A DNA stretch of 64,000 nt from Blasia pusilla (lineage: Eukaryota): contig CM114271.1 of NCBI GenBank assembly GCA_050084515.1, positions 31,620,001-31,684,000 of the forward strand, given 5' to 3'. The notes below the pieces were generated by a model. The model was not told where the DNA came from, ran no database searches, and saw only the letters and a program-made list of their open reading frames with translations. Both the position numbers and the translations under genes were made by a program. This document shows positions 23,173 to 57,299 of the stretch, piece after piece (positions within the stretch are counted from its first letter, which is position 1; every line of letters starts with the position of its first letter).

Positions 23173-24410
23173 CATGGTTGCACAAAAATGGACGTGTCCA
23201 AACATATCCGTGAACATGCCATCCCGCACTCGACCCCCCACTCATTCTCGCACCTTGGCATGTGTCCCGACTCCTTACAACAACCCCCACCTACGTTCGA
23301 CCCACTCAGCTTGCCCCTAGCCCGCGTCCCTACTACGTGGGCCACATACACGCTAGACGAGGACCCATAAATTATTTTTTAAAAGAAAAAAAATGTGACG
23401 TGCGTTCCTCTAGATCTTGCGCATACTGGATGCGGGCCAGATGCAGGCCGGACGCCGACCCGAAGCACGCCACGTTCGCGGGAAGGATGCGGGCTAGGAT
23501 CGGATGCGATGCCGGATCGGGTACTAGGGTGCGAGCTCTGGAGCCCGCGTCCGGGTTGCTTGCGGGCTTCGGGGCCCGCGTGTGAGCTAGGTCGCAAGCC
23601 TCCGAGCCCGAATGCGGGTTAGGGTGCGGGCCCTGAATCCTACGTGCGGGCTGATTACGAGCCGCTTGCGGGCCCTGAAGCCCAGCATGCTTTCGAGCCT
23701 AGAAGCCCGCATGCGGGCTCGCGGGCCGCCAAGCCCGCCTGCATGCCAGGTCGCGGGCCTTTGACCCCGCAAGCGCGGGCTAGTTGCCGTCCTTGGAGTC
23801 TGCGCACGAACTCCAAGGCCCGTAGTGCAGGCTAGGGCATGGGCTCGCAGGCAAACCGTTGAGCCTGCCCGCGGATGGCGCGCACTGTGCGCTCTCAGCC
23901 TGCGTGCGGGCCTTGGAGCCCGCATGCGAGCTAGGGCGGGAGGTCACGCACGGGCTCCTTGTGGGTCGTGCGGGCCAGGGGTTGTGGGCAGGCCCTATGA
24001 TTTAAGTGAGATATTAAATAAATTCTGTCACTATTATGGTTTGGGTGATTGACGGGTTGAGAGGTTGGAATAAGGTTTTTGTAGGAGAATATAGGTTAGT
24101 TAGAAATGAGAGTAATTGATGAATTTGGGATCCTAGCCGTGGAGAAAGGAATGAAAATATTAAAATAGATTTGAACAGGGTGGTTGTATTGCAAAATAGG
24201 TTTGTTGGAAATTGAAAGTAGGTCAAGAAGGAATCTAATAGGAGAATAAAAGTAAGTTTATTAAAGAAAATTAATGGAGATGGTTTAGTAATCAATTGTA
24301 AGTGGGGGTAGATGATTTGGGGATTTAGAAGGATTCATTCTCTTCTTTCCATCCTCCCCTATATAAACTTGCTCAATTTTTGTATACCCTCACAATCTCA
24401 TTCCTCCCTT

Positions 24411-24441
<31 letters not shown>

Positions 24442-24646
24442 AGATAGCTGAACTTGATAAGTGAGAATATGTTTTGCCACTAGATAACCCTGATACTAAA
24501 GGTATTTCGGTTATCTAAGTTAGCATATTGATCTTTCTTGTTCATAGAGAGTGTTCCAAGTTTTTTTATTGGAGCATTCACGGAAAATATTTATTATTGC
24601 AAATTTTCCAAATATTGTTGGGTGGGGTTAGTGAGTGCATGTAGTG

Positions 24647-27034
24647 ATGACCAAAGCCAGAGAACTCCAACAGATTGTGAAGGAACATTGGGAAGAAGTA
24701 CAGATGGAAGGTGAAACATCAAGCAGATGGCAATGCAAGTATTGTTCATATTCTATGAAAACCTATCATAGCACGCGGATGATGGAACATTTTAAACGAG
24801 AGAAACGAAAGACAAAGGATGGGAATTAGGATATCCATCATGCCAAATTATGTGTGAAGGTCCCTCCCAACGTGCAACCGGATCTCTGAAACAGGATTCT
24901 AGTGGGAAATGGACAAAGAAGGGAAGAGAGACCTTCGAGTGAAGTGGAAGAGACTACTCCATTACAAATAGTTTTGCAACAAACAGGAAATCATGTTTAT
25001 GTTGTACAAAATATTGATGGGGTTGTGAACATGCCATGGAGTGACAGTCTCAAGGAATGCAGAGGAGTTGTTGGGCCCATTCGAGGGAGTAGTAATTTTG
25101 GGAAGAAGCAAGCTGATCTGAGGGATTCTTTCAACATCCAAGGAATAGAAGTTGCAAATGACATGTGGGCAAAGTGTTTCTACGAATGTGGAATACCATT
25201 CAACGAAGTACGGCAAGATGCTTTCAAAGAAGCAGTATTGGCAACAACAAAGATGAAGGGTTACTCAGGTCCTAGTTATAATTTATTGCGCACCACCCTA
25301 CTTGAGAAACATATGGGGAAGGTGAAGGAAAAGGTGGATGGCATATTGGAAAATTTGCGTTTGGGGGCCACGATCAAAACGGATTCTTGAACTAATGTGA
25401 GAAGCAAGTGTTTGGTGAACATAATGGTCTCTTGTCCACAAGGTGAGGTCATGATTGAGTCGATAGACACCAAAGGGGAATCCCAAACGGCGGAATGGTT
25501 GGCAGGTCACATAGAGAGGACTATCATGAGCATTGGTCCAAAGAATGTGTCGCAACTTGTGACAGAAAATGCTAGCAATGAGCGAGCAATAGAGAAACTT
25601 ATCGAAATAAAGTTCCCTCATATTCTTTGGGGTGGATGCGTATCACTTTCTCTTGATCTAGTCTGCGAAGAGTGGGGTAAATGGCCTTGGGTGGACAGGA
25701 TTTTTGCACAAGTTCGTGAGATGGTAGTATTTGTGAAGACTAGAACTTGGGTGATGGCCAAATTTATGGAAACCAATCCAATGAAGAGACGATTGTTGCT
25801 TCATGCAAATACATGATTTGCAACAAATTTTATCATATTGGGAGGCATCTTAGAATTGAGGGAGGTGTTCCACGCCATGGTTGCCACCATTGCTTTTAGG
25901 GAGTCTTTCAATGGCAGGGATGCGAGGCAAAGCAAGAAGGCACAAGAGATTGAGACTATTGTGGCCAATCACGATTTTTGGATGGAGGGTGAGGAGTCGT
26001 CTGCTACGGCTCAACCAACTATTATTCTGTTGAGAGAGTGTGATGGTCATAAAGCAAGAACTGGGCGTATTTTTTGCCGTATTTTTGAGATAATGGAAGA
26101 GACTCGTTCTTTTCCTATGACTCCATGGCTTGGTATGGGCGGAAGGCATCATGGTTATTTTGTCACAATGTCTAGAGCTATAGAGATGGTCGATGTTATT
26201 TCTAGGCGGTGGACACTTATCCACAACAAGTTACGTGCAATAGGCTACATTCTCACCCCTTACAATCTTCTTGATAGTGTTCAAGACGTCACTTCAAATG
26301 CTCAGTGCATGAGGGATTTCAAAAAATATCTAAAACTACATGCAACGGGGGTGGATGGCCTTAATGTCATCGAGGCTAATTCTTATGTGGCAACTTGCTT
26401 GCGAGAGTTGGGAAAAATTGTGAACCATCAAGAAATATTTGTGGATGAATTTGGTAGGGAAGTTGTTGATTCACTATGTCCCTCTGATTGGTGGAGCATG
26501 CACGATCAAGGTGCACCAACATTGCGCTCTGTGGCTAAGTTCATATTAGCACAAGTGGTTTCATCTTCTTCAACGGAGAGAAATTGGAGTAGTTATGGTT
26601 TCATCCACAACAAGCACAGGAAAAAATTGACCAACAAGTGTGCCAGGGATTTGGTTTATATCTACACAAACTCAAGGTTTGGAGACAAGGGTGTTTCTTG
26701 GAAATCAAGACAAGCGCTCTTGTACGAGCAATACTTTTCAAAAAGGGATGGACAAGAACAAGCTAGAAGGGTAGTAGAAGATGGTAGTGAATCTAGCTTG
26801 CATTCAAGAAACCGTGATGGTAATCTTGAAGATAACCTTGACTTGCAAGATGAGGATCTAGGGGAGGTGGATGTGATATGTGGAATTCATGGCACTGAAG
26901 GGAGAGAGGATACTCATATCGGCAACATTGAAAATTTTGATTTCGAGGGGCTTGGAAGAGATGAAGATGATGTTGAAGTGGAACATTGGATTCGAGAGCA
27001 CGAAGAAGAGCAACGACGGAGGATTCAAGCGTAG
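24647..27034 (+). pseudogene. hAT transposase pseudogene (BED finger, DUF659-type core, C-terminal dimerization domain)
   Basis: WQCKYC...TRMMEHF BED finger; WAKCFYECGIPFN; GYSGPSYNLLRTTLL; TDS*TN (DxW); T*FATNF (TRF); WWSMH...PTLRSVAKFILAQVVSSSSTERNWSSYGFIH. In-frame stops near 25390 and 25816 and a frameshift near 24830. Confidence 0.9.
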
Positions 27035-27564: not shown

Positions 27565-28377
27565 TCACAACGCCATTTTGCTCAAAACTTTGCAAGAGTG
27601 CTACAAACGCAAGTTGGGAAAGTTTGACATGATGAAAAATGAAAAAAACGTCATTTCCATTGAAGGTTTGGTGGTTCGGGGCCAAAAGTACAATTTCCAT
27701 CGAAGGTTTGATGGTTCGGGTCCAAAAAAGAGTTAGAATTTTTTAGGGTTTTGCTCACAACTTCATTTTGCCTAAAACTTGGTAAGAGTGCTAAGGCCAC
27801 CTTGGGGACCATGTTGGCCAAATTTCAACTCAATATAACAAAGTTGGACAAGATGAAAAATGGAAAAAGCTTATTTTGGTAGAAGGTCTGATAGTTCGAT
27901 TCCAAAAAGGAGTTAGAAATTTTTGAGCTTTTTCTCACAACTTCATTTTTCCTCAAACTTGGCAAGAGTGCTAGATGCACCTTGGGTACAAATGTGGCCA
28001 AATTTCAGCTCAAGATGAAAAATTTGGACAAGATGAAAAATAAAAAATTCTTTTTTTAATAGAAGGTTTGATGGTTTGGGTCCCAATAGGACTTGCCAAA
28101 TTTTTAGCTTGTGGTGTGAACTCCATTTTTCTTGAAAAATGGCAAGACTTCTAGATGCATCTTGGAGACCATGTGGGCCAAATTTCACCTCAAGATGAGA
28201 GAGGTGGACAAGGTGAAAAATCATAAGACCTTCTTTTCATTCAAGGTTTAATGGTTCGGGTCCAAAAAGAGTTAGTTACTTTTGAGATTTTGCTTACATC
28301 TCCATTTTGAATTAAAATTGGCAAGACTACTAGATGCACCTTGGGGACCAATGTGGCCAAATTGCAACTGAAGATGA
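27565..28377. repeat. 180-bp tandem repeat array, segment 1
   Basis: Repeating unit AAACTTGGCAAGAGTGCTAGATGCACCTTGG...GGCCAAATTTCAGCTCAAGATG...TTGGACAAGATGAAAAATG...AGAAGGTCTGATGGTTCGGGTCCAAAAAGGAGTTAG with a 180-bp period. Confidence 0.9.
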
Positions 28378-28802
28378 TGTGAGAAAACAGAAAGTGACGA
28401 AATCACTAAAATCTTTATAAAACTTAGAGATACAAAGTGGCCTAGTCCGTCTGTACGCTCACACAAGAGCTTCGATGGAACCTGAACATGGAGATAACTC
28501 AACATACGAGAATGCGCTACCGCTGTGGCTCCCGACTATTTCACTACTCGGGAAACTAGGATTTTTACCTAATTTTCTTCATTTCTATTAATAGAAAAAG
28601 TTTGCCGAGGGCTGCGCCCTTGAAGCCTCGCGACGCATATAGGGTTAGATAATCCTAGTAACGCTACTCCTGAAACCACCTACGTCATATTACTATGACT
28701 CCTTCGACGTCTAAGTCGGAACCATCAATCTAGGCTTCTCCTCATACAAGGGGGCCGATCGGATTAATGGTGCTCAGAGAAGTGGATGTTGAGAATTCAA
28801 CA
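28378..28802 (-). mobile_element. 3' LTR of a Ty1/copia element (425 bp)
   Basis: On the minus strand the polypurine tract GAGGGGGGG (28803-28811) immediately precedes TGTTGAATTC ... TTTTCTCACA. It lies downstream of the copia RNase H. Confidence 0.75.
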
Positions 28803-28828
28803 CCCCCCCTCAATATCCACTCTCATGT

Positions 28829-29612
28829 TGTCGTGCGCCTACTCTCCTTGAACGTTAATCTTGTTGTTGCTGAAGCGTGCGTTCAGTAGGTCACGCTCTC
28901 AACGTTGATTTGCATCCAAACACGCACTCTGGTTATTCGGGTCTTGGATCAATCAGAGGGCTAAATTTCCGAGTTCTCGTCTCGGACTCTCATCAAGCTC
29001 AACCTTCCTAGTTTCGCGGTTTACAACACGGGCAAGTCTCGCAAGACTTGGGACAAACTTTTTGGTCGGTTCAGGAACCTCAAACGGCGTTTCTCGCTTG
29101 GCGGTTCCAACTGTCCGATGGACATCCAATGAGTCCCTAACCAAGACTCGCACGAAGTGAATCTCGGGTTAGAATCCAAGTGTGGCGTACAAAGTCCACT
29201 CCCTTGGATCAGGTTTGGGTTTCGAGTTCCAACGCCAAACTCCCGTTCCATCCCGTGCCTCAGAGACGCCGTTTGACGCTCAAATGGGGGATTCGTGTTC
29301 CAAGACATCTTGGAGAGACTCCTCCCTTACTAGTACTTCTGGGGATGTCCGGGGTCCCCCTACCTTTAGGGAAAGACACCCGGGCCTCTCCAATTGGCCC
29401 TCAACCCCATTGCTCTAACAATTGTTTTCGGCCAATATCTCAGTCTATACTTATGCGTTTGCTAAGATCTTTAGTGCGTTGGAAGCGTCTCAAGATAAGC
29501 TTTCCATTGCATCCTTATTTGTTCCAAACTCATCTTGAGACTAAAATTTATGATCCAAAACACAGTAAAATTCCCCAAACGCTAGTCGTGTTCCAAAACT
29601 GGTTCTCACCTC
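28829..29612 (-). mobile_element. Truncated copy of the ~1-kb LTR (family 2)
   Basis: High similarity to 52171-52940 and to the reverse complement of 42355-43130. Has the TGTCGTGCGC terminus. Confidence 0.85.
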
Positions 29613-32600
29613 CTCAAAGCTTTCGTGAAGATGTCTGCACGGTTATCCTCTGTTGGACAATAGACTAACTTCAAAACCTCTCTCTCGATCAATTCACAAA
29701 CAAAATGATTCTGGATCTCTATGGGCTTCGTATGAGCATGAAACACAAGATTATGTGCTATGACAATGCAACTATGATTGTCACACCACATTACAGTAGC
29801 ACTTTCTGGTGCTTCTCCTATGTCCTCCAATATCCATCTCAACCATACTGCTTCACAAGAAGCATAACAAGCTGGCTTGTACTCTGCCTCGGTACGAGAA
29901 AGAGCCACTGTAGTTTGATTCTTGTTTACCCATGACACCACACCTGATCCTACCAAGAAGCAATAACCCGAAACTGATCTCCAAAAATCTGAATCTCCTG
30001 CCCAATCTGAGTCACAAAAAGCTGCCATTTCCATCCCTGTTCCATAGGTGATGTCGTACTCGATAGTGCCTTTGATGTACTTCAACGCACGCATCCCTAT
30101 CTTCCAATGGTTCTCACAAGGCTTAGTTGAGAACCTACTCAAAACTCCCACAGCAAAGCTAATGTCTGGTCTAGTGTTACACAAAAATATCAAACTGCCT
30201 ACAAGCTTTCTGTACAACTTTTCATCTACCAATGGTGAAACATCCTCCATCGAGAGTTTCAACTCTACCTCCATTGGCAAGACCATTGCCTTACACTCGG
30301 TCATCCTGAATGCCTTCAAGATTTCTCTAGCATACTTTTGTTGAGAGAGAAAAATAGAATCTCAGTGTTGCCAAATCTCCAGCCCTATAAAGTAGTGCAA
30401 AATACTTAAATCTGACATTTCAAACTCAGATTTCAACATTCCCTTCATTTCCTCTATTTTCTTACTGTGGTCTCATGTGATGATCAGATCATCCACATAT
30501 AGGACTATCAACATATACCTTCCATCTTCGCAAAACACATATAAATTTGCTTCTAATGGACTCTTGATGAGACGCTTCTCTCAGAAGAATGTATCTATTC
30601 ATTGATACCATACCCTTGGGGCTTGCTTCAACCCATACAATGCTCGATGAAGTAAACACACTTTCTCTTGTGATCTAGGTGTCTCAAAACTTGGTGGTTG
30701 AGATACATACACCTCCTCCTTGAGACTCCCATTCAGAAAGGCAGACTTCACATCGTATTGGCATACATGCCAACGTCTTGTTCTTGCAATCGCTAGAACA
30801 ATTCGAATGGTTGTCATCCTTGCAGTAGGAGCAAAAGTCTCATAGTAGTCGAAACCTTTGATTTGTGAGCATCCTTGTGCAACCAACCTCGTTTTAAATT
30901 TATCCAATGTATCGACCGACTTGTACTTGGTCTTGTACACCCACTTGGTGCGTATTATCTTCCTGTCCTTTGGCTTCTCAACCAAAGTCCAAGTTTCATT
31001 TCTTTGAATAGCGTCCATCTCTATGGCCTCTCTCCATTGAGGATGAGTAAGGGCCTCATCCAAGCATGATGGCTCTTCCACCTTCAAGACCTCTGTCATA
31101 AAGGCCATGTTGACGAGATATGCGGAAGCTCTATTATGCTCCTCTAGTCTCTTGGATCTCCTTGGATGTGTAACATCTTCATCAATTGCTAGTGGATCCT
31201 TACCATCCAAGAGCTGCTTTATCCACCTAGGGTATGACGACCGTAGTGGAAGAGGAGGGTGCTCTTTGTAATCATCACCAAATTCTTCTTCTTGATGATC
31301 TGGTGTAAACATTGGTGGTGTGCTCTAGTGGGTTATCTCTTCGTTTGATGATAATGTGGATGAACCACGGATATCCACCACTTGCGCTTTGGAGTGGCGT
31401 TTGGAAGAGTCTCTTGGAAAAGTAACGAGTTGTGCGTTTCATGCGGAACACAACATCACGACTCACAAGTATCTTCTTTGCCTCAGGACACCATAGGCGA
31501 TAAGATTTAGACTCATCACTGTATCCCATAAAGATGCACTTCCTGCTCTTGGACTCCAGCTTGGTCCTAGATGCTTCAGGAATATATACAAAGCACTCAC
31601 TACCAAAAGTCATGAAATGTTGGACTGATGGTACCTTACTTGAGTATGATTGATGAGGAGTCATGCCTTGCACTGACTTGGTAGCACTTCTATTTAGAAT
31701 GTCTGTCCCAAACCGATGTTGAAAGAAACTAGGAAGGTTGAGCTTGAAGAGAAGTCGAGCGAGAACTCGGAAAGTAATCCGCTGACGTGTTTGGATGCGG
31801 ATCAGCGTTGAGCGTGACCCTGCGCTTCCGCAACAAACAAGATTAACGTTCGGACCAAAATCCTTCTGTCAAACCTTTTGCTTTTATCATACATCTTGCA
31901 ATCTCCACCTTTGTACGGTTTTGACGCTCAAAAACTCCATTTTGTTATGGTGTATGTGCCATGGTTAACTATCGCTTGATTCCATGCTCCCCCTAATATT
32001 TATTGAATTCTGTTGATAAGAATTCTCCTCCTCCATTGGTGCGAAGCTTCTGTACCTTCTTTCCTCTCTCATTCTTAACGAGTTGGCTAGGTAGCAGGCG
32101 GTTGTTTACAAATAGTGAGTGAAGTGTTGTGCCATACTTTAAATTTTCCAAAACCACTTGCCTTATCACCTAAGACTTAAGGAAATACACCCACATCTTC
32201 CTACTATAATCATCACGACCCTCATAACCAAACAACTTCGACAACTAAAAAGAAGTAGGAAGAACCACCTAATGCCACTCTTCTCATTTTACCATAGAGG
32301 TTAGCATGAATAAGCTCTAGAGGAGCCTTTGCTCTATTGCTCGACTCTTGTGGAAATGGTTGTCGGTATTGCTAACCCATCATACAAGCTTCACATGTAT
32401 CCGACACTCCAGAAAATTGTTGGTAAATCAACAACCATGCCAGATTCTGCATCTGACTTAGTAATGGAAAGCTTAGGTGACAAAACCTTTCATGCCACAA
32501 CTTTATCGCTACTAAGATGGTGAGGAACTCATTGGATGTTCATCGGACCTACACTTGTTGCAAAAGCATACAACTCGTAGATATTTCCATGTCGTATACC

Positions 32601-33300
32601 TTCACCCGGTACTTTTCCATTGGCATCCTCAATGACTCCTCCAATTTTCTTGAAACAAACTTCTAGGTCACTTGGAACACACATAATATCTTCTTTGCCT
32701 CAGGACACCATAGGCGATAAGATTTAAATCAAATTTTGCTTCAACTCAAAGCTTGGTAAGATATATACAAGCACTCACTACCAAAAGTCATGAAAACATG
32801 AGTTAACTTCTTTTCATCTCCTTTTTGTGAGACTAAAGAAATTTTGCCTTTCCCTTCTACAGGGCACTTTGCATTATTCCCAACACTAACAATGATGGGC
32901 TCCTATAGATGCTGTAAGGAGCTATACCAATCCTATGATTGGTCATATGCCTAGATGCTCCACTATCAAGCACCCATGCATCTTCACTCTTTGACTTAGT
33001 GGAATGTTCTGCATGTGTGCAAAACTCTTCGATTGCTACCCAAGCATCTACTTCATGTTCTCTTAGTTCTATAGAATTTTCAGACTCCTTAGGTCTTAAA
33101 CAATCGTTTTTCTCATCCTGGCTCCTCTTTCTACAATCTTTGATAAGATGACATAGCTTACCACAATAAAAGCATTTGAAGGCTTTCCTTGGAAATTTCT
33201 TCTTGACATTTGAAGTGTAATCCTGATTTCTACCTCTATGTACATTGGCAGTAAATGCTGCATCAGTTCCCTCTCTTGCTTTGAAGTGAAGGCTTGGATG
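29606..33300 (-). pseudogene. Ty1/copia gag-pol pseudogene (zinc knuckle, protease, integrase, RT, RNase H)
   Basis: CFYCGKLCHLIKDC; WVLDSGAS; integrase tail KLESKSRKCIFMGYS..YRLW; RT motifs KWVYKTK, DYYETFAP, LYGLKQAPRVWY, YVDDLII; RNase H CDSDWAG, ADIFTKAL. Copia domain order, with many stops and frameshifts. Confidence 0.92.
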
Positions 33301-34092
33301 AGACGCGGCCAAGGGGTGAAAACCGGACTTGAGACGCGGGCAGCGTTTGGGAGTTTCCGACTATACTTTTGACCATAACTTTGAGTCCCAAGAAGCGTTT
33401 GGGACAAGTAAGATAGCGTTGGAAAGCTTATGTCAAGCCACTTCTAATGCACCAAAGATCTTTGCAAATTCTTGGGCAGAGGTTGAGATATGGGCCAAAA
33501 CCGCCTGTAAGAGGAGTCGAGTTGAGGGCCAAAAAGAGGGGCCCGAGTGGTCTTTCCCAAAGGTAGGGGGACCCCGGAGTTTCCTAGGAGTACTAGTTAG
33601 GGGGAAGGTCTCCAAGAGTGCTTGGACCTCAAACCCCACTTTGGGCGCTGCGGGGCGACCCAAGGCACGGAACGGATTGTGAGTTTGGTGTTGGGCTTCA
33701 AAACCCAATCCAAGTTTGATAGAGGGATTTCTGAGATCCCTATTGGATTCCAACTTGCAACTCATATCGTTGAGTCTTGGTTAGGGGCTCATGCGAGGTC
33801 CGTTGGACAATTGGGACCGCAAGGCATGCAAATGCCATTTCACGTGCCTTGACTAACCATAAAGTCTGTCCCAAGTCTTAGAAGGCTTGCCCGTGTTGGG
33901 AACCTAGGAATGAGGGAAGGTTGAGCTTGATGAGATGCTGAGTTGAGGACTCGGTGGGTTGGAAGGCCGCTTGACCCAAACCCATACTAACGTGAGTGCA
34001 TTTGGGTGCAGGTTGGCGATGAGAGTGTGTCCTACTGAACATACGCTTCCGCAACACTAAGATTGACGTTCAAGGAGAGTAGGCGCACGACA
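33290..34092 (+). mobile_element. 5'-truncated, diverged family-2 LTR
   Basis: Colinear with 42330-43130. Ends GTTCAAGGAGAGTAGGCGCACGACA directly against the 180-bp array. Confidence 0.8.
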
Positions 34093-36397: not shown

Positions 36398-36576
36398 TGT
36401 CACGACTGTTAGGATAGATCGGCGGTATCTAGCAGAGCGTTTGCACAAGTGTATGGATGCCATGAGTTAGCATGGGATCGTGTGTGCTTGTGTGTGTGTT
36501 AGCGGTGTATGTTTTGTAGCGATGTATGTTTTGATAGCGGTGTATGTTTTGTAGCGATGTGTATGCGCACGACAAC

Positions 36577-37087
36577 TCTCACGATTGTTAGGATAGATCG
36601 GTGGGATCTAGCAAAGCGTCTGCACGAGTAGTGGAGGACAAGCCCATGAGATCAAGGCTGACCTGTTGAGGCCCCGATAAATCTGAGAGAGCAGGTTTTC
36701 CCTTCGTTTTGGCTCATTTGGAGCCATATAGAGAAACTTACTATTTCGGGTAAATTTCCATATTGGGGATAGTTGATTTTCCACTTTGGGAAGGGGCCCT
36801 TGACCCGCTACAACAGGTCAAGAGGCAACGAGGTGACCTGCGAGCATAGGTTACCGTTGAGAGGGCTTGGGAGAGGGAAGGGGGTATACCTCCAAGCGAG
36901 AGAGCTTGAGAGCTCATTCTTTCTTTTCTGAACCTCTTGGCATAAGGCGGCGGAGCTGTGGTCCCTTGCCTTGTGAGTGTAACCCAAGCCTCTCATTAGG
37001 AGAGTGGGTTTGGTTTGACATGAGAGAGTGCAAACTTTTGAGAGCTATGGTGTGAGATAGTGTAGAGAGAGATTGGATCTTACTTTA
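36577..37087 (+). repeat. Terminal repeat segment A1 (511 bp)
   Basis: Direct repeat of 47398-47909, highly similar along its whole length. Confidence 0.9.
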
Positions 37088-41460: not shown

Positions 41461-41710
41461 GGATACTCCCGTTCCTAAAATTTCTATGGAGAGGATTGTT
41501 ATGGTAGCCGCATCATTCCGTGGAGGAGAGGTGCCATTGTGGGGTTTTATTGAGGAGCTTCGACGATTGGCTGATGAGCACGTGCACACAGTGTGGAGCG
41601 AGGCGTTTGCACCAGTGTGTGACGGGTCTGAGGAACCCGAGGTAGCAGGGAGTGCAACGATGACACCCTTGGATACCACACCGATTGTGTGGTGTATCCC
41701 GGAGGAGGAT

Positions 41711-43680: not shown

Positions 43681-44049
43681 CTTGGGAGCGGTTGAGCAAC
43701 GACGTATGAGATCGCGACAGATCATAGCGGTATTGTTGGTGAGCCCCATGCCTACCGAGACGGTGGAGGCAGTGGCTGGGGGCAAGACCCAAGGAGATCC
43801 ACACACAAGGGGAGATCGAGAGAGACACCCTTGGACTTCTTGGGATGTTTTGCAAGTACGCTAGGAGATGATAGCCCCAACATCAAGGGTGGTTCTGGGC
43901 ACTGCACGTGAAGGAGATCAGAGTTTGCAGTCGGCTGCAGGAGAGCGGCCGAGTGTTGTTGTTCGAGACGGGATTGCACCATAGCAACCACCGATACCCA
44001 CGTCGGAGAGTCCTACCGTAGTCAGGATGGAGACTTGGGAGCCAAATAT

Positions 44050-46930: not shown

Positions 46931-46951
46931 GTAGTTCTTACAAGCTTGCGT

Positions 46952-47092
46952 TGTATGTTGTGTGGTTCTACTCATGGTGCAGCCACGATGCTAGTCTGTG
47001 ATGGATGTTTGAGAGGTTGGCATATGGCATGTCTGATGCCACCTCTCACTAGGGTTCCTTGCGGACGATGGATGTGTCCCAGATGTACATAG
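46952..47092 (+). other. PHD finger (C4HC3) at the end of pol
   Basis: CMLCGSTHGAATMLVCDGCLRGWHMACLMPPLTRVPCGRWMCPRCT* has all eight zinc ligands and the conserved Trp. Not listed in the ORF track. Confidence 0.92.
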
Positions 47093-47280
47093 AGGAAATA
47101 CTAAGTAGGTTTCAATTCCGAATTTTTTTTGTGACATGGATGACAAGAAGGCGACTAACGATGGGGCCACATGAGCACTCGAACTTTTTGCTCTTATCAT
47201 CATAGAGATGTATGTTGTGGTAGGTAGGGATAGATGGCTATCTGGAGTTAGAGGGACCTAACCACCGGCTAGGGGGGCGA

Positions 47281-48026
47281 TTGGAGATATTTTGGTACTT
47301 TTCGCCTCTATATATTGATGCCATGAGTTAGCATGTGATCGTGTGTGTTCGATGACAGCGATGAATGTTGTGTAGCGATGTGTATGCGCACGACAAATGT
47401 CACGATTGTTAGGATAGATTGGTGGGATCTAGCAAAGCGTCTGCACGAGTCATGGAGGACAAGCCCATGAGGTCGAGGATGAGCTGTTGAGGCCGTGGGA
47501 AATCTGAGAGAGCAAGTTTCCCTTTCGTTCGGCTCATTTGGAGCCATATATAGAAACTTACTATTTTGGGTAAATTTCCATATTGGGGATAGTTGACTTT
47601 CCACTTTGGGAAGGGGCCCTTGACCCGCTACAGTAGGTCAAGAGCCAAGGAGGTGATCTGTGAGCATAGGTTACCGTTGAGAGGGCTTGGGAGAGCGTAG
47701 GGGGTATACCTCGAAGCCAGAGAGTTTAAGAGCTCATTCTTTCTTTGTTAAACCTCTTGGCATAAGGCGGCGGAGCTATGGTCCCGTGCCTTGTCAATGT
47801 AACTCAAGCCTCTCATTAGGAGAGTGGGTTTGGTTTGACATGAGAGAGAGTGCATACCTTTCCGAGCTATGGTGTGAGATGGTGTAGAGAGAGATTGGAT
47901 CTTACTTTATTGGAGATATTTTGGTACTTCTCGCCTTTTTGTATGGATGACATGAGTTAGCATGTGATCGTGTGTGTGTTCGATGATACCGATGTATATT
48001 GTGTAGCGATGTGTATGCGCACAAAA
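47281..48026 (+). repeat. Right terminal repeat block B1 (47281-47395), AA, A2 (47398-47909), B2 (47910-48026)
   Basis: B1 and B2 are direct copies (TTGGAGATATTTTGGTACTT ... GATGTGTATGCGCAC) and A2 copies A1. The purine tract AGGGGGGCGA precedes B1. Confidence 0.9.
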
Positions 48027-48620
48027 GATGGTTTGGGTCCAAAAAGGAGTTAGTAATTTTTGAGCATTTTCTCACAACTCTATTTTTTGTGATACTTGGC
48101 AAGAGTGCTAGATGCATCTTGAAGACCTTGTCGACCAAATATCAACTCAAGATGAAAACGTTGGACAAGATGAAAAATAAAAAAGCCTTATTTGGATAGA
48201 AGGTTTGATGGTTGGGGTCCAAAAAGGAGTTGGAACTTTTTGAGCTTCTGTTCACAACTTCATTTTTCCTGGGGATCATGGTGGCCAAATTGAAGCTCAA
48301 GATGACAAAATTGGACAAGATGAAAAATGAAAAAACATTGTTTTGATAGAAGGTCTGATGGTTCGGGTCCAAAAAGGACTTGCCAAATTTTGAGCTTGTG
48401 GTCCCAACTCCATTTTGCTTTAAACTTGGCAAGAGTGCTAGATGCACCTTGGAGATAACGTGGGCTAAATTTAGCTCAAGATGGAAACGTTGGACAAGAT
48501 GTCCGGTTAAAGACTTTTTTTTTTTCCATTCAAGGTTATCTGCTTCGCATCCAAAAGGTCATTTTAAACTTAATTTGGGATGAGACTTTGCCAGAGTGAT
48601 AGATGTTACTTGGGGACCAT
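48027..48620. repeat. 180-bp tandem repeat array, segment 3
   Basis: Same monomer, resuming at GATGGTTTGGGTCCAAAAAGG and decaying toward 48620. Confidence 0.9.
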
Positions 48621-49400
48621 CTGCACTATTCTATATAATGTTAGAAGAGTTATTACATTTCACTCTTGTAAGTAATTACACTCTTGCAATCAAATGTAAA
48701 TGATATCCTACTCCCTAGAGTAAATTCATCCTTCCATAAAATTCAAACCAAAGCTTTTCATTCTCCATTTAAATTCAATTTCCCTTTCCATTACATATGA
48801 ATCAAAGCACCTCTGAATTTATTTATCTAACATTCTCAAATCTATGCAAATTTAGTAATATTTTTATTCACCTAGTATAGTATTAAATAAATTAATAAGT
48901 AAATTTGGTTTTCTATTCCACCCAAGTCCCTTTCAAATTCTACCCCATGGAATATTGGTCAGAGGGATAAAATTCATACATTATTTTCCTTTACAATTCA
49001 ATTCAAACATATATTTTCCTTCATTAATTTTGGAAAAAAAATTCATCCCTTTTCCAATCCCTTCTTTCAATAAATGAAAGAAAATCGCTTATTTTTCTAA
49101 GTTAGTGATTTTTTTGGAGTTACTTAAAAAGATAAAATTTATATCAAACAAATCATTCAATTATGGTAGCTTCCACCTTATCCAAGGATTTATAACCCAA
49201 GAGAACAATTTCATCAATTTCATGAACTCACTTCATGGACAACATTCGTGATCCGCTCACAGTCACAAGTTTCCTTACTGGAATATTATGATTTTTTTTG
49301 AAAATTTTTTACAACAAATGAGGAGTACCCCAAAAAAAATCTGGATTGAGAGGAATCTACTTATGTACATTACAAAGATATAAATATCAACTCATTCTCT

Positions 49401-51600
49401 CTAACCTGATTCATTGTCTGACATATGTAACACCTGTGCCGACGTCTCACCATTTCTTCCTCCTCTTCCCCTAGCTCTAGTCATGTGCATCCCACCTCCA
49501 CGAGGAATAGTCCTTTCCAACTCAACATCAGCTTCACCATCATTAGTGTTCTTGTTTTGGCTGCGTTGGAAACATCTCCCACTCTCTCTCGAAGAATCCA
49601 AAGAGTTCCTCGTGCATTCGATGAGGGTAATAGTATGTTCGAGGATATCCGCCTTCAGTCCTTTGAGGAATGTCTTGCCATAAGAAAGGTGGCAAGATCA
49701 ATTCGAGTCTCCTCAAAACAAGCTAATCCATCAATGGATTTTGATGATGGTTTAGCACAAGTTGTTGAGTTGTGTTGAGGACGTCTCGAACTTCTTGTGA
49801 ATTCAACCCTTGAGCAAAGAAGAAGTTTTCCGCCTCTCAATTTTGGAGATCAATGGTTGTTCCGTGGATGAGCTCTCCTCGATTGTACATGTCAATGAAG
49901 CAATCCAACCATGCTTGCATTTCCCGATCAATCCTCCGCTGGCGAGGGATTTCCACTTGAACCACCCCGTCTATGTTCGGGGTTATAGTTCGATCGGGGG
50001 CTACAATTTCCCAAACTGAAAGTGAAATTTTCTTACTCTTGGGTTAATTTGCGATAAGTGCATTTCCATCAGGAGCGCAGAAAGATATGCGGAAAAGGTG
50101 ATAAAGTCTTCCTGATCAAGCTTGTCTACAAGTTGGACACTTGTGAGATAGTAGCATGGCCTTTTGAAGACAATATGGATGTCAATAACAAGCTTTACAT
50201 GTGCCTGTCACGTAGCAATCTTCTGCAACAATGGGGTTGAAGCACATCATGCATTTGGGACAATTTTTTGGCATGAGGGACCCTCCTTCACATATTGTGA
50301 TTTCCTTCATCCAATCCAAAAGATGTTGCACTTTTGTGTTTGGATTAAGAGGTGTTGGTGCTAACATCATAGAGGCATAGTTTGCAGCGTTTGGATCCAC
50401 GACATTGTCCCATGCTGCGCGTAGAGCTGGAGGCCACAATTGCTTGATAGGTTGAAATAAGATCATATTAACCTCCTTCACGAGACAAACCTCAAGTAGG
50501 GCTGTCTCTGGGATGAGTTCTCCCACGTTACCTCTTGCTCTCCATCCTAACAATTCATCCATCTCTTGCTGTCGTCTTGCCATGATGTTCTTGTATGCTC
50601 TCCTCCATTGCTCTGTGTGGTCAACCATTACAACTTTTTGCCTTCTGTGGAGGTCATCTCTGGCAATAGATTCATTCAAAAGCCTCTCCATCTCTTTCTT
50701 CAATTTTATGTGCTCCTCAGATAGCTGTTCATACTTCCCCTTCAAAACGTTGAATTCCACGGCCAAATCAAAATTACGTTGGAATTTGTTATTAAACTGT
50801 CCAAGTGTGATAGATGAGACATTACCTCGATATTATCTGGAGCACTCTTCCCAGGAAAGGTTTGGGGAGAAGCACCGCTATGTATAGGGCGATCAGAACT
50901 CTCCCCGGGCTCATCAAAGCTTGCACTACGACCTACATAGAGGTCATTCAAACCATCTCGTCTATCCTCTGCCCCCATCTGTACTCGCCCTTCATCTCCA
51001 CTCTCATCTTGTATATATTATTGAGCACGACTATTTCTTCTTTGACCATCCAAGGAAGATAGTTTGGCTCTAAGGCTCCTTGACAATCCACATTGCTGAC
51101 AATGGCATAACGACGCTCGTGGTGATGAAGCTTCCACTCTTGCTTTTTAAAAGTGTTGCCGTGGGGTTCTATTGTCTTCTTCTCTTATCTCCTCTCAAAG
51201 ACCCCTCATCCACATCGCCATATTGGACCTCTATATCCTTCATCAACTCCGCGACTTTGAGCTGAACAAATACCTTAGTCACTAATTTCATCTTTCTCTT
51301 GGGGAGGTCTTCGTACTTTTGGACGCCATTGAGTAAAGCCCAATCCTTTGTCCAGTCATCCTCTTCCACTTTCCTTGTAAGTTCTCCAATTGCAAGCTCC
51401 GACCACTTCAGCCCCGACTTCTTGAACTCTCCTTTCAAAACTTGTGGGTCAATGGTGCTATCCAAGTGCGCCTTCAATTCATCTTCCGTGACAAATTGCG
51501 AGACCGTCTTCTTGTTCACCTTCGGAGGGATCTCTGGTGTTGGTGTATCTAGGGGTTCTTACCCTCTTCCGTCGTCCTGATCGATGTGAGGGCTACGGTC
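49401..51600 (-). pseudogene. Decayed gene with a coiled-coil region and a RING-like finger (candidate transposon cargo)
   Basis: Co-oriented ORF fragments (51169-51519, 50182-50766, 49655-49840, 49401-49601). Reading through TGA at 50182-50184 gives CMMC-x14-CKACY*HPYC-x9-CPTCR (50128-50253). Confidence 0.6.
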
Positions 51601-51815
51601 TTCATGAGGTGGCAACTCCATCTTGTCTTTTACCAAAATACAAAAATAAAGGTGATTTAGAAATGATTCCAATAATAGTGATACCATGGCACATGATACA
51701 TCCGCATATCAATCAAGATTCATTATTCACAAAATTTCATAGTAACACATTCATCTTTTTGAACCAAGTCTTTCATTTCTCATGAAAAATATCCAATCCT
51801 CAAACGGGTTTACAA

Positions 51816-54380
51816 TCATACTACCACTGCTATTGGCCTTAATCCCGAATCTACATCGTCTATACCTAATACTTTTGCATTTGCTCTGATATATGCAATA
51901 AGAAACTCTAAGCTTTTGCGAACATAGGGATTCGGAGCTAATTCCCACTTTTGAATCCTTTCCAAATAAGTAACTCTCACGTTCGCTTGGGCATTCTTGA
52001 CAGAGAGGTTGTATGTCACATAGTTCAAATTCTTCACAATCATTCATAGGGCATAGATTTCAGTGGCCTTGCTAAAAGGGAGATTCTGAGGCCCTACTTT
52101 CAACTCCAGTGCTATATGACCTACATGGTTTTTTTGTTCCTACTGCCACCATGTATGAGGAGACACTAAGTGTCGTGCGCCTACTCTCCTTGAACGTTAA
52201 TCTTGTTGTTGCGGAAGTGTGCGTTCAGTAGGTCACACTCTCAACGTTGATCTACATCCAAACACACACTCTGGTTAGTCGGGTCTTGGATCAATCAGCA
52301 GGCTAACTTTCCGAGTTTTCGTCTCGGTCTCTCATCAAGCTCAACCTTCCTTGTTTCGCGGTTTACAATACGGGCAAGTCACTCGACTTTCTGGTCGGTT
52401 CAGGAACGTCAAACGGCGTTTCGCGCATGGCGGTTCCAACTATCCGATGGACATCCAATGATTCTTTAACAGATACTTGCACAAAGTGAATCTCAGGTTG
52501 GAATCCAAGTGTGGCTTACAAAGTTCACTCCCTTGGATCAGGTTGGATTTTGAGTTCCAACGCCAAACTCCCGTTCCATCCCGTGCCTCTGAGATGCCGT
52601 TTGGTGCTCAAAGTGGAGATTCATGGTCCAAGACATCTTGGAGAGACTCCTACCTTGCTAATACTTGTGGGGATCTCCAGGGTTCCCTACATTTAGGGAA
52701 AGACACCCGGGCCTCTCCAATTGGCCCTCAACCGACTGCTCTCATAGTCGTTTTCAGCCAATATCTCGGTCTTTACTTATGTGTTTGCTAAGATCTTTGG
52801 TGCGTTGGAAGCATCTCAAGATCAGCTTTCCAACGCGCTCTTATTTTTTCCAAATTCATATTGGGGCTAAACATTATGGTCCAAAACACAATCAAATTCC
52901 CCAAACGCTAGTCGTGTTCCAAAACTGGTTCTCACCTCTTTGGCAACCAACCTTCCAGGACTCAACTCATCTCAAGTCTTGGCTCACCTTTATTCTAGGT
53001 TTCCTAGTCGTGACCACTTATACATGAAACGCACAACTCTATTCCACGTTTCGTCTCTTGGACTTTTCCAAGAGACCTTTCCAAATGCCTCTCCAAAGCG
53101 CGAATATCGTAGCGTGAGTCCACTTGAGTTCTGATTTTTTGCTAGGCCCCTATTTGGTATTGTTTGGTTATGAGGGTCGCGACACTCACCCCTCCTTAGA
53201 AATTTGATGTCCTCATCAACGCAAACCTTTTTAATGTTAAGTTTTGGGAAGCTGACCCCTTAACACTAAATCGCGTTCTGGTAGCTAACCTGCAATTCCT
53301 CTTTTGGCTTAAGTGTTAGGTTGTCGCTATGTGTGTTCCAAAACTGGTTCTCATCTCTTTGGCAACCAACCTTCCAAGACTCAACTTATCTCAATTCTTG
53401 GCTCACATTTGGTCTAGGTTTCCTAGTCGCAACCACTAACGCATCAAACACACAACTCTGTTCCACGTTTCGTCTCTTGGACATTTCCAAGAGACCTTTC
53501 CAAATGCCTCTCCAAATTGCGAACATCACACTGTGAGTCCACTTGTGTACCGATGTTCCACTTGGCGCCTATTTGGTGTTGTTTGCTTATGAGGGTTGCA
53601 ACACTAAGACTTCATCAGTCCACATGGCATTCCCCCAATCTCCAACGCCGATGTATGGGCTAGAGTTGGATCGAAAATGGATGAATATGTTTCTAGCATG
53701 GAGGTCGGTATGAAAAACTCCACGCTTGTGGACACTCTCCATGGTTCCAAGAAAGGCAACCACAAGGTTGGTGACCTTTGATGCTATTGCAAGATATCTC
53801 ATCTTTTCCAACTCTCCTAGATTACCCCCGCCGTTCTTCAAGTTATGACATGCTCGCAACCAATATTCAAGGTGTCCACCATTCCAATATGGAAAAATGG
53901 CACGTGATGGATCCTTGATCAACCTTCCCACCATGCGAACAACACCACAATGTAAAATACTAGCAAACAACTCCTCTTGCATCATCAATTTTCTAGATCC
54001 TGATAGAGATGATTCCTTATACACCTTCATGCAATAATACATTTCTTCCCTAAAGCCACGGGTTCCGTTATTTTATAACGATACACGATTGTGTGTAAAT
54101 CGGTTCCCACAATATCGCTCGGGTCATGTCCTATTACTACATTCTTATGGCAAATCAAAGTTATTACACATGGAACGGTCAATGTCAACCCTAGAGAAGT
54201 ACTACGTCCCTTGAAAAGACTTTGAGCACTTCTTAACTCTATACAAAATCTTTCTAGGAGAGCCGACTCTGCAACATTCTGCTTCTCATCCTTATATGTC
54301 TTGAGATGGACATATGCTCTCTCCAGGTTAACATCTTATTGGGCAGAAAATTTAGTCAACCTATCAGCCTTCGCGGCATC
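51816..54380 (-). pseudogene. Protein kinase pseudogene, split by an LTR-element insertion
   Basis: CMKVY (subdomain II), HTDLHARN (VIb), GDWG (VII). Beyond the insertion: HIALE (APE-like), FSKATEIYAL*MIV (IX) and PNPYVR (XI). Confidence 0.8.
52171..53603 (-). mobile_element. Internally deleted family-2 LTR retroelement
   Basis: Complete LTR at 52171-53184; polypurine tract GGAGGGGTGAG on the minus strand (53185-53195); ~150 bp internal remnant; partial second LTR at ~53331-53603; perfect 5-bp TSD CTAAG (52166-52170 and 53604-53608). Confidence 0.92.
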
Positions 54381-54839
54381 CACAAGGGAGAGAAATGTAC
54401 GGGTTGAGATAAGAAAATATCAAAAAGAGAATGACGTGAGATGCTAAAACAATGGCTCGGAATGTACTAGCACCTGAATGATGGAAGTTTAGGGTTGGGC
54501 TCTCAAAGGGAATAGGGCATGTTTAGACAAGGTTTGTTGATCACCTCCATATCCCCGATGTGCTAAGGAGAACCAATGGAACAAGTCAAAACACTTGGGT
54601 CTATGAATCAGAAATCTCAAAATCACCAAACAAGTTTAGTGAAACAAGAGATTTCCACACTCACAAACACTCACCTAATGTGGAGTCAATTGGAGTTTAT
54701 TTTAGATACAACAAGGAGCGGAAATATCCAAGTTGGTCCCAAACAAAATCCAAGTACCCCCAAAAGGCACCCAAGGGATTTCTCCAAAATTCCTAGTAAC
54801 CTTGAAAGCCCTTAGCTCTCAAGGCACCATAAAATGCCT

Positions 54840-55080
54840 TACGGGGCCGTAGAGCCTGCATGTGGGCTAGGCCCGAAGCGTGACGCGACCCAATTTGTTT
54901 GCGACGCGGGTCCGATATAGAAACAGGGGACGGGCATGATGCCAACTGGCCAAGAAAGGGCGGATTGCTCGGTGTGCACGGGCCTGACTGCGGGCCGCGA
55001 GCAATGCGGGGGCATGGAGCCAGCACTCGGGCCCGTACTAACAAGTCCGTAGACACAAACTTTGTCCACGTGCAACCTTG
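54840..55080. mobile_element. Additional hAT right end with a GC-rich subterminal block
   Basis: Ends ACTTTGTCCACGTGCAACCTTG, the reverse complement of the CAAGGTTGCA terminus. Confidence 0.7.
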
Positions 55081-55217
55081 ATGCATGCGGGCTAGGGCGC
55101 AGGCTCGTTGCGGGGCTTGGAGCCTGCACGCGGGCTTTTTACGGGCCTTGGAGCCCGCTTGTAGGCTAGGGCGCGGGCCTCAAAGCCCGCGTGTAGGCGC
55201 GTCGCGGGCCATGTGAA

Positions 55218-56425
55218 TCCTCGATCAACCTTCCCACCATGCGAAAAACACCGCAATGTAAAACACTCTTCGCGCATCATCGATTTTCTAGATCTTGATA
55301 GAGAGGATTCCTTATACACCTTCATGCAATAATGCATTTCTTCCCTAAAGCCATGGGTTCCATTTATTTTACAACGGTACATAATTTCGTGTAAACCGGT
55401 TCCCATGATATCGCTCGGGTCGTGTCCTACTACTACATTCTTATCAAAATCAATGTTATTGCATATGGAATGGTCAATGTCACCCCCAGAGAAGTACTAA
55501 GTCCCTTGAAAAGACGTTGAGCACTTCTTAACTCTACAAAAAATCTTTCTAGGAGAGCCGACTCTACAACATTCTGCTTCTCATCCTTAAAAGTCTTGAG
55601 ATCGACATACACTCTCTCTAGGTTAACACCTTGTTGGGCACAAAATTTAGTTAATCTATCAGCCTCTGCGACATCCACTTACCAGTCAAATGCCTTTGCC
55701 TCTCTATTGGAAAATCTCTGAAATTCCAAGGTGTAGTCATGAAAACCATCCATACCCCTCAAAATGTAGGATCATCTCTTATCTAAAGAAATCTGGAAAA
55801 ACTAGTCTAACCATGCCTCTCTTACAGCCATGTTGAAATCATTCCTCGAATTTGCTCTTTGCCTCTTGGCACCAACATTGGACTCATTTCAGTTCTCTCC
55901 CGCTCTGGATGACCCAGCCCCACTAGACATTTCCCTCATATGAAGAAGATACTAAAATCTTTTAAAAATATAAGGGAAGTAAATGTACGGGTTGAGATAA
56001 GTAAATACCGAAAAGATAATGATGCAAGATGCTAAAAAAAGGCTCAGAATGTATGGGCAGATGAATGATGGAACGTCAGTCTAAGTTTAGGGTTGGGCAC
56101 TCAAAGGGAATAGGTAGATATGGGCGTGTTTAGATATGGTTCACATCCCCGATGTGCTAAGGAGAACCAATGAAACATATCAAAACACTCGGGTCTATGA
56201 ATCGGAAATCTCAAAATCACCAAACAAGTTTAGTGAAAAAAGAGATTTCCACACTCACAAAGACTCACCTAATGTGGAGTCAACTGGAGTTTCTTTAGGA
56301 AGCAACAAGGAGCGCAAATATCCAAGTTGGTCCCAAATAAAATCCAAGTATCCCCAAAAGGCACCCAAGGGATTTCTCCAAAATTCCTAGTAACCTTGAA
56401 ATCCCTTAGCTCTCAAGGCACCATA
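55218..56425 (-). pseudogene. Second, diverged copy of the kinase 5' half and upstream region
   Basis: Direct duplicate of ~53912-54832, with an extra ~295 bp (55678-55972) that is missing from the first copy. Encodes MGTGLHEIMYRC...CMKVYKE. Confidence 0.85.
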
Positions 56426-57299
56426 GAAATTTGGAGCCTAATCCAAAATGTCACCAAAAAACTGATAAAACATGAAAAAATAGAGATAATTAGGTAAATT
56501 AGCGCTTAATTCCCTTTCATATATGCATTTTGGGGGCCCCTTGTGGGCCTGTCCCTTATGGATTTTACCCAAAAGGGGAAGGGAGGGGGAAGGGGAGGGG
56601 AGAGGGTGGGGCCAAGTTCAAACGTGGCCCCAGCCACTCCCAGGACGCTACGTGTCCTCGCGGGGTTTGCCGGACGCGGGCTCCATGTAGGCGCCACGTG
56701 AGTGCCACCGATTGGGCCATTAACGGCGGGACCAACGGCAAGCTATGGAGGGGGCAACGATTGGAAAGCTACGGAGGGGGCAACGATCGGCAAGCTACGG
56801 CGGGCGGCGCCACGTGGCGCATCGCAATCGGGGGGGCGGGCTCGCAGGCCCGATCGCAGTCGGGGGTGTGGGGGGGGGGCTCACAGGCCACGAAGCCCGT
56901 GTGCGGGCTAGGGCCCGAGGCGATGTATCAGAGGGCGCGACGCTGGCGCGACCGAAAAATGGGCACCAGGCAACGATGGAATTCTCAGTATGCGCAGGCA
57001 CAGGTGCGGGTCGTGGGCAACGCGGGCTCATGGAGCCCGCATCCGGGCCCGAACGAACCTGTCCATCCTTGGGACGGACATATGTCTGCGGACATGGACT
57101 TTGTCCGCGTACAACCTTGATGTTTGTAGGTACGGACTTTGTCCGCATGCCACCTTGAATATGTCATGTTTTGTTCTCTATAATATACACATAGGAGAAT
57201 ATAAATTAAACCCTTTGCATCTATAGGCACCCCTCCCCACATACACAATTTGATATATCTAGTACAGAAGGATGAGCATGGATGAGAAAGTCCAAGGCG

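Follow-up and report, generated by a model that had tools for sequence, protein, structure and literature searches.

A probable compound hAT insertion with a tandem array and a kinase-like gene inside a miniature element of Blasia pusilla

The hAT elements are, in their textbook form, one-gene cut-and-paste transposons that are typically a few kilobases long. We analysed a window of plant DNA, the 64,000 nucleotides of Blasia pusilla contig CM114271.1 between positions 31,620,001 and 31,684,000 (all positions below count from the first letter of this window), in which a preliminary description drawn from the sequence had proposed a giant, cargo-carrying hAT transposon of about 34 kb at 23173-57119. 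From left to right, this interval holds a GC-rich terminal arm, a hAT transposase pseudogene, a 180-bp tandem array broken up by two long terminal repeat (LTR) retroelements, what we read as a second gene with kinase-like, coiled-coil-like and RING-like parts, split by a solo LTR, and a right arm that is present twice. The interval 23173-57119 is one hAT-type insertion domain that split a miniature inverted-repeat transposable element (MITE). It is probably an old and dead compound hAT insertion into a MITE of its own family, in which an element that we call E1 (23173-55080) is followed by a truncated relative, E2 (55081-57119).

Outer ends and the interrupted MITE

The insertion starts with the terminal inverted repeat (TIR) CATGGTTGCAC at 23173-23183 and finishes with ...GTACAACCTTG at 57109-57119; compared as inverted repeats, CATGGTTGCAC and CAAGGTTGTAC agree at 9 of 11 positions. 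The TIRs of hAT elements usually start with YARNG, with which the start CAAGG is consistent, CATGG being off by one base. The two ends had been said to resemble those of a MITE at 14299-14624 (326 bp), which has a perfect 8-bp target-site duplication (TSD), GGCGGCAT (8/8), and the likeness is confirmed: over 27 nt, the ends at 23173 and at 57119 each match the corresponding MITE end at 23 positions. The end motif CAWGGTTGYAC, allowing at most one mismatch, occurs 12 times in the window for 4.07 occurrences expected, a count that was reached in none of 100 shuffles.

The flanking octamers, ATGTCCGC (23165-23172) and ATGTTTGT (57120-57127), match at 5 of 8 positions, with a chance probability of 0.027 for a match as good or better, and all three differences are C>T, in agreement with the preliminary description. 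They are a decayed 8-bp TSD. On the outside they continue into the two parts of the host MITE, a reverse-oriented (minus-strand) member of the family to which the 14299-14624 copy belongs. The larger part, 22905-23172, has the left TSD copy as its last 8 bp; on the other side, within 57120-57157, the right TSD copy gives way to the terminal 30 bp of the MITE, ending ...CCACCTTG. When 22905-23172 is joined to 57128-57157, the resulting 298 bp can be aligned over their full length, and directly across the junction, to the 326-bp MITE in reverse complement, a reference in which the target 8-mer occurs a single time. The earlier proposal that the joined flanks restore a continuous MITE is therefore correct.

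The left arm (23173-24000, plus strand) carries GGAC..GTCC palindromes near its tip. GC-rich subterminal blocks, also reported before, are present at both ends, with 68% GC at 23401-24000 and 61% at 56431-57119, against about 30-43% in the other interior segments. GCGGGC motifs are clustered in both of these blocks and are rare elsewhere in the window.

Other members of the same hAT-type MITE family lie in the neighbourhood. A copy of 431 bp at 898-1328 has a 7/8 TSD, CTATTTGA/CTATTTGG; a MITE-like segment at 22477-22787 has end-like motifs, and no TSD was found beside it; single ends are present at 13012 and 18589.

The transposase pseudogene

The transposase region (24635-27031, plus strand) faces inward from the left arm and consists of one frame of 714 codons (24890-27031) preceded by a weak BED-like finger (24635-24826). 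In the long frame, DUF659 (PF04937; E 2.5e-24, 86.1 bits) and Dimer_Tnp_hAT (PF05699; E 5.3e-9, 36.2 bits, cut-off 21.4) are both matched above cut-off. The finger region has a C-x2-C...H-x6-H pattern in its frame, and its match to zf-BED (PF02892; E 0.011, 16.2 bits) stays below the cut-off of 20.6 bits. Two TGA stops interrupt the long frame, at 25388 and 25814, and the DUF659 match starts ahead of the first of them. Because of these stops we consider the transposase a pseudogene, and the element does not have the uninterrupted frame of an autonomous one.

The relatives of this transposase in protein libraries are distant (24-34% identical) and have the same pair of domains, DUF659 and the hAT dimerisation domain; a scan of metagenome contigs with the transposase gave 81 pattern matches, none of which was confirmed. 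On the basis of the 8-bp TSDs, the short TIRs and a transposase with the dimerisation domain, the element belongs to the hAT superfamily.

The tandem array and the nested retroelements

The 180-bp tandem array is found in three parts, 27610-28377, 34093-36396 (where it resumes between two retroelements) and 48027-48501, which together make up 3547 bp or about 19.7 units. The third part adjoins an AT-rich spacer at 48502-49400 (30% GC).

The first interruption is a nested Copia-type LTR retroelement at 28380-34092 (minus strand), flanked by the TSD TGATG/TGATG, with RVT_2 and an integrase SH3-like domain on the minus strand. The second is a Gypsy-type element at 36397-48026 (plus strand) with RNase H and integrase, whose LTRs are 90.7% identical over 558 bp and whose TSD is degenerate. 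Further to the right, a solo LTR of the same Copia-type family as the first element occupies 52171-53603 (plus strand), flanked by the TSD CTAAG/CTAAG and inserted in the kinase-like domain described below. Since the array continues across the insertions and two of the TSDs are perfect 5-bp repeats, the retroelements arrived later than the DNA around them. The interval without these three insertions measures 15171 bp, as anticipated by the preliminary estimate of about 15 kb, and the remainder does contain the hAT transposase, as a pseudogene, and the 3.5-kb array of 180-bp units.

Some irregularities of these retroelements can be recorded. In the Copia-type element at 28380-34092 the right LTR (33342-34092) is minus-oriented and the left LTR-like segment (28829-29612) is inverted, that is in plus orientation, with 449 bp of other sequence ahead of it; the outer 5-bp TSD is nonetheless perfect. 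A further copy of this Copia-type LTR lies inverted inside the Gypsy-type element, at 42111-43131. The solo LTR has an internal 420-bp duplication (52906-53186 compared with 53325-53605), and many reads and contigs from other LTR copies are without it, their joints skipping about 420-429 bp.

A putative decayed gene with kinase-like, coiled-coil-like and RING-like parts

The right half of the interval had been described as holding convergent kinase and RING genes. This is not the arrangement that we find: both frames are on the minus strand and run in the same direction, inward from the right arm, and it is towards the transposase that they are convergent. We read them as parts of one decayed gene of about 4-5 kb, split by the solo LTR.

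Its proximal part (53604-54400, minus strand) would encode an N-terminal region and a kinase-like N-lobe through the catalytic loop. The frame at 53590-54072 has HTDLHARN where kinases have HRDxxxxN, and GDWG where DFG is expected, and there is a frameshift near 54030-54072. Of the kinase profiles, whose matches are weak, PK_Tyr_Ser-Thr (PF07714) matches this frame above cut-off (30.3 bits, cut-off 23.1) and Pkinase (PF00069) just below it (30.8 bits, cut-off 31.7). The best match in the PDB has an E of 0.0047, to kinase domains. A search of the ESM Atlas returned only kinase clusters, at 0.93-0.96, and the ten best matches bearing a family name were all kinases. Read across the solo LTR, the same frame goes on into a C-lobe-like stretch with two stops, which means that the LTR landed within a whole kinase-like domain.

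The distal part (49400-52170, minus strand) begins with this kinase C-lobe remnant just below 52170 and includes the frames 51172-51558 and 50185-50832, the latter coiled-coil-like. A RING-like Cys/His pattern lies at about 50100-50260 on the minus strand; it is partial and C-terminal and is broken by an in-frame stop. Ten frames were compared with Pfam at E values up to 1, and none of them matched a RING family; the ESM Atlas leads for the distal frames were weak (0.78-0.85), those bearing on the RING-like part scoring 0.78-0.80. A capture of the kinase-like part from the receptor kinase gene that lies in the same window at 6657-10682 was also considered and discarded, the two being unrelated (E 1.8).

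A second right end

Two kilobases inside the outer right end lies another one. The internal right TIR, ...GTGCAACCTTG at 55070-55080, is an exact CAAGGTTGCAC on the minus strand, with no mismatch to the end motif, and the left TIR CATGGTTGCAC agrees with CAAGGTTGCAC at 10 of 11 positions, compared with 9 of 11 for the outer end. The 8 bases that follow, ATGCATGC, match the TSD ATGTCCGC at 5 of 8 positions (chance p 0.027). The idea of a single giant hAT therefore holds in part: there is one insertion domain inside a MITE, but not a single pair of ends, since the internal right end at 55080 pairs 10/11 with the left one. The preliminary description had overlooked this second right end, as well as the duplicated right arm and the in-frame stops in the transposase and in the kinase and RING-like frames.

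The duplication of the right arm is extensive. In E1 it covers 53908-55080 (plus strand), with a unit A at 53908-54835, a GC-rich subterminal block and the internal TIR; in E2 it covers 55214-57119 (plus strand), with the corresponding unit A' at 55214-56430, an expanded GC-rich subterminal block and the outer TIR. The two stretches are colinear up to the TIR, A and A' being 89-90% identical and the GC-rich subterminal parts 68%. The 5' part of the kinase-like gene adjoins the hAT right arm in both. When metagenome contigs were scanned with a conserved 24-nt block of A and A', 0 matches were obtained. Between the two arms, at 55081-55213 (plus strand), is a piece of 133 bp with 70% GC whose sole likeness within the window is to the left subterminal block (23503-23977), at 65-78% identity and in several different registers; we read it as a probable remnant of the left arm of E2.

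The kinase frame runs unbroken across 53907/53908 in E1, and in E2 the homology ends at this point against GC-rich arm DNA. This stop against arm-type DNA indicates that E2 is an internally deleted derivative, also without a left TIR. A motif search found no second left TIR within 23173-55080, so that the one at 23173 is the sole left TIR there. The interval thus has two right ends of the same polarity (55080 and 57119), and the first element is followed by a second copy that is truncated, as in a compound insertion. Without its nested elements E1 measures 13132 bp. A plain tandem duplication of unit A with the right arm was tried as an explanation and rejected, because nothing equivalent to 55081-55213 follows 57119 and the homology begins inside the kinase frame.

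One segment distinguishes the two copies. A stretch of 293 bp, 55679-55971, is kept in A' and absent from E1, and it is without TSD or inverted ends. Its bin has a read depth of about 70, which is the level of the family, and a contig joint connects 54383 to 55682; the segment is therefore family sequence that was deleted in E1 and not an insertion in E2.

Read depth and copy number

Depth was obtained from two raw-read whole-genome shotgun runs with the same species label, X9 and X10, of each of which about 1/100 of the reads was used. Two contig sets were mapped alongside them; mapping covered 47900-59900, in the right half of the interval, the threshold was at least 85% likeness, and depths are those of both strands summed. 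In runs X1-X5, 0.11-0.22 of the sampled words were present.

The four low bins of the unique flank average a depth of about 0.45. By comparison, 49504-51909 averages about 103 in X9 and 53514-54716 ranges from 49 to 112, the bins of A' from 16 to 69 and the GC-rich arms from 13 to 22. The kinase/RING-like gene region is thus about 200 times deeper than the unique flank, and is repeated, as a rough figure, in the order of a hundred or more times. Such a depth makes it repeat-borne DNA and not the single-copy capture of a host gene. The solo LTR is deeper still (about 500-860), and 901 X9 reads (about 900 per run) change to unrelated sequence ahead of 52171, which is what the terminus of an LTR should produce. 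The highest depth seen, about 1130, is that of an LTR fragment outside the insertion, at 57524-57924.

A contig of X2 (219 nt, depth 32) spans the junction between array and spacer at 48470-48680 with 7 differences, where a contig of the unique flank has a depth of 2.4. This single contig, with 32 nt on the side of the array, hints that the array is linked to the gene region in several copies.

Among the differences of the X9 reads over 47900-57900, the window has A or T where the reads have G or C at 377 places, and the reverse at 210. This bias fits C>T decay of the present copy, as of a methylated repeat. The A/T-ward bias of the window copy agrees with the C>T direction of all three substitutions found in the right copy of the TSD. 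A possible boundary of the repeat at 49358, suggested by a loose end in 19 contigs of X1, was dismissed as only local divergence, homologous mutated sequence being present in the window.

A proposed history of the insertion

We infer the succession of the events, as well as a duplicative origin for E2 and a hAT-borne state for the high-copy relatives of the gene. A long element of autonomous type, E1, would have inserted by cut and paste at the target ATGTCCGC within a MITE of its own family. Its layout would have been a left TIR and GC-rich arm, an inward transposase, the 180-bp array, an inward kinase/coiled-coil/RING-like gene, and a right GC-rich arm and TIR. E2, the 5'-truncated and internally deleted copy of the right arm directly behind the right TIR of E1, which ends in its own TIR beside the right TSD copy, may have arisen when hAT transposition or gap repair went wrong and duplicated the arm, in the manner of compound Ds elements. 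The two LTR retroelements and the solo LTR would afterwards have brought the insertion from about 15 kb to 34 kb, and C>T decay would then have disrupted all the reading frames. According to this account, the kinase/RING-like gene would be interior DNA of the hAT lineage and part of a high-copy repeat.

For grasses, a rate of 1.3e-8 per site per year is commonly used. With this rate, the divergence of the Gypsy-type LTRs (9.3%) and of A and A' (10-11%) would make the insertion and its compound structure several million years old, by order of magnitude.

A further step may be proposed tentatively, although we would put it at well under an even chance: a whole two-gene hAT family could exist, with units of about 13 kb that combine a transposase and a convergent kinase/coiled-coil/RING-like accessory gene with a 180-bp array between them, each gene running inward from a GC-rich arm, amplified in a large plant genome to the order of a hundred copies or more and giving rise to E2-like derivatives and to the MITEs that are seen five times in the window.

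Several observations weigh against the history that we favour. Most of the X9 reads fit only in part (21564 of 27184), and most are less than 90% alike (16642 of 27184), which is why the figure of about 200 times is a rough one. This copy is the single case behind the link between the half with the transposase and the half with the kinase/RING-like gene. The internal flank matches the TSD weakly, and its last four bases may be arm repeat, ATGCGGGCTAGG being present also at 23487. E2 retains the 293-bp segment missing from E1 and so is no plain copy of the present E1; the segment was lost from E1 at a later time, or else E2 derives from a different member of the family. The ratio of nonsynonymous to synonymous changes (dN/dS) between A and A' is 0.65, equal to that of wrong-frame controls (0.63-0.71), and gives no sign of selection between the two copies. 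Finally, a search of the protein libraries, which appear to be without plant proteins, brought up no homologue of the 216-aa frame.

Alternative explanations

The kinase/RING-like region, perhaps together with the array, may instead be trapped filler, a piece of an unrelated high-copy repeat, in which case most of its roughly 200 relatives would not be hAT-borne; we regard this as possible though on balance doubtful. The mapped reads could derive from an unrelated repeat family that donated the kinase/RING segment. The hAT elements normally encode a transposase only, and the GC-rich arms are 3-8 times shallower than the gene region. Moreover, Ds-like elements with high-copy filler of untraceable origin are described in the available part of PMC3260210. 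However, the arms decay faster than the gene (68% against 89-90% identity in the pair within the window) and are expected to be less deep at the 85% threshold for this reason, which alone could explain the gap. Within 48400-55300, neither a terminus or TSD belonging to the region itself nor the inverted ends of another DNA transposon could be found, and no profile of a known transposon protein family matches the kinase/RING-like region. The 5' part of the gene, furthermore, abuts the hAT right arm in two diverged copies.

The relation of E1 to E2 can also be seen differently. E1 and a fractured neighbour of the same orientation, E2, might have moved jointly by means of the left end of E1 and the right end of E2, so that the block of about 15 kb arrived in one step as a macrotransposon. 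This is the nearest surviving form of the earlier giant transposon, and it accounts for the TSD at the outer ends and for the rebuilt MITE, as well as for an interior with an unused right end followed by an element without a left TIR. The use of outer ends by two neighbours of the same orientation is the Pack-TYPE model in the accessible portion of PMC8903248, and an Ac/Ds precedent that moved about 100 kb is cited in that of PMC3260210. Two points speak against it, neither of them strong. Beyond the internal right end, the flanking bases are like the local TSD (5/8), which is unexpected for a donor junction, and the internal end pairs better with the left end than the outer one does. We consider a joint movement unlikely, and in-place duplication of the right arm of E1 preferable.

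It is more improbable still that the two elements were nested, with E2 first in the MITE, E1 inserted into the left arm of E2 in the same orientation, and one direct left arm then lost by recombination. The piece at 55081-55213 does look like an inner left arm joined directly to A', as in a Ds-like deletion derivative; since E2 keeps the 293-bp family segment that is absent from E1, the two may be independent family members; and a Ds-like element inside another has been described by Du et al. (PMC3260210, in the part available). This sequence of events needs, however, an extra deletion without trace, there being one left TIR only in 23173-55080, and the flank after 55080 should be the TSD of E1 itself, unrelated to ATGTCCGC, yet it matches at 5 of 8 positions.

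A chance meeting of two unrelated MITE or hAT ends across 34 kb of repeat-rich DNA, which might be argued from the frequency of MITE-type ends (12 motif matches) and from a TSD of only 5/8, is hardly credible and can be set aside, since the outside flanks are two parts of one MITE, colinear across the join, with the target 8-mer present once in the reference, and GCGGGC-rich blocks are found in both arms and nearly nowhere else in the window.

Comparison with known elements

Compound, nested and gene-carrying hAT elements are already known. In literature searches, which were not exhaustive and excluded supplements, no description was found of a hAT with a second gene or of a giant hAT, and a search by sequence strings returned unrelated primers only. 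Two genes running inward from terminal arms are a feature of MuDR of maize, which belongs to the Mutator superfamily, has a 9-bp TSD and contains the convergent genes mudrA and mudrB; the likeness is one of layout only, as mudrB is not kinase-like. With Ac there is a relationship at the superfamily level only, the element described here having other TIRs and a transposase with a Pfam DUF659 match.

The closest parallels are compound Ds elements, macrotransposons and Pack-hATs. According to the text available of PMC3260210, the compound element Ds-l4-483 of maize comprises a complete element with its TSD and, behind it, a truncated duplicate that finishes in a TIR with a further TSD, and LTR retrotransposons nested in Ds-type elements inflate these, for instance Ds2-13 to 12.7 kb. 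The insertion in Blasia, like Ds-l4-483 in that account, has a complete hAT element with TIRs and TSD and a truncated copy behind it. Unlike Ds-l4-483, whose first element is Ds-like and of about 1 kb, E1 is of a 13-kb, transposase-bearing type, E2 lies directly behind it with no trapped foreign DNA between, and the candidate extra TSD copy after the internal end, though reminiscent of the one in Ds-l4-483, is only 5/8. The Ac/Ds macrotransposons, of which one is described in PMC3260210, and alternative transposition (PMC4270019, PMC9910405) offer a second parallel, in which the ends of different neighbours of the same orientation bound a block that behaves as one insertion. Unlike those, the present block is known from sequence alone, and its internal flank is like the local TSD, which fits in-place duplication better.

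The Pack elements, as they appear in the accessible portion of PMC8903248, are short, non-autonomous carriers of low-copy gene fragments with identifiable donors. Like the Pack-hAT and Pack-TYPE elements presented there, the insertion in Blasia is hAT-ended, holds coding DNA other than that of a transposase and is compatible with a model of fusion of neighbours. It is unlike Pack-hAT in that E1 has a transposase pseudogene and that the carried gene is of about 4-5 kb, with a whole kinase-like domain and about 200 times the unique depth. A tandem array between the arms of a DNA transposon recalls Tetris of Drosophila virilis, a foldback DNA transposon with internal tandem repeats that seed satellites (PMC4079207, in the part available). 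That element is an insect foldback, unlike the present case, in which a 180-bp repeat of about 20 units separates the two genes of a hAT from a plant.

The unusual point is the combination of a transposase-bearing hAT, a 3.5-kb satellite and a whole inward second gene, highly repeated and found on the right arm in two diverged copies. A lineage that carried a whole second gene and a satellite and nevertheless multiplied would illustrate the growth of DNA transposons, the transport of a satellite within such an element and the way in which a signalling-type gene comes to be repeat-borne. Should the repeats of the gene prove to be hAT-borne in this layout, they would define a new two-gene variant of hAT; otherwise we would be dealing with a decayed compound element with trapped repeat DNA. 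The compound structure itself would be a fossil of an aberrant hAT event, with a duplicated end and an extra TSD, of the kind that in maize breaks and rearranges chromosomes. For annotation, the lesson would be that the "kinase" and "RING" frames are transposon debris and not genes.

Other features of the window

Two fragments from the LTR family of the Gypsy-type element lie on both sides of the host MITE region, at 20255-20686 and 57518-57731 (the latter reaching about 57924 if judged by depth). They share one orientation, are 77-82% alike and could represent the LTRs of an element that is much older and encloses the whole nest.

On the left side of the window, a leucine-rich repeat (LRR) receptor-like kinase gene occupies 6657-10682 (plus strand). 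Its open frame of 1008 codons (6657-9683) includes LRRNT_2, numerous LRR repeats and a kinase domain that resumes, after a gap, at 10179-10682. With 51-53% GC, 6657-10682 is the most GC-rich stretch outside the transposon interval. Local tandem duplications are present at 18144-18541, where 193 bp occur twice with 90.7% identity, and at 59897-60158, where 132 bp occur twice with 93.9% identity.

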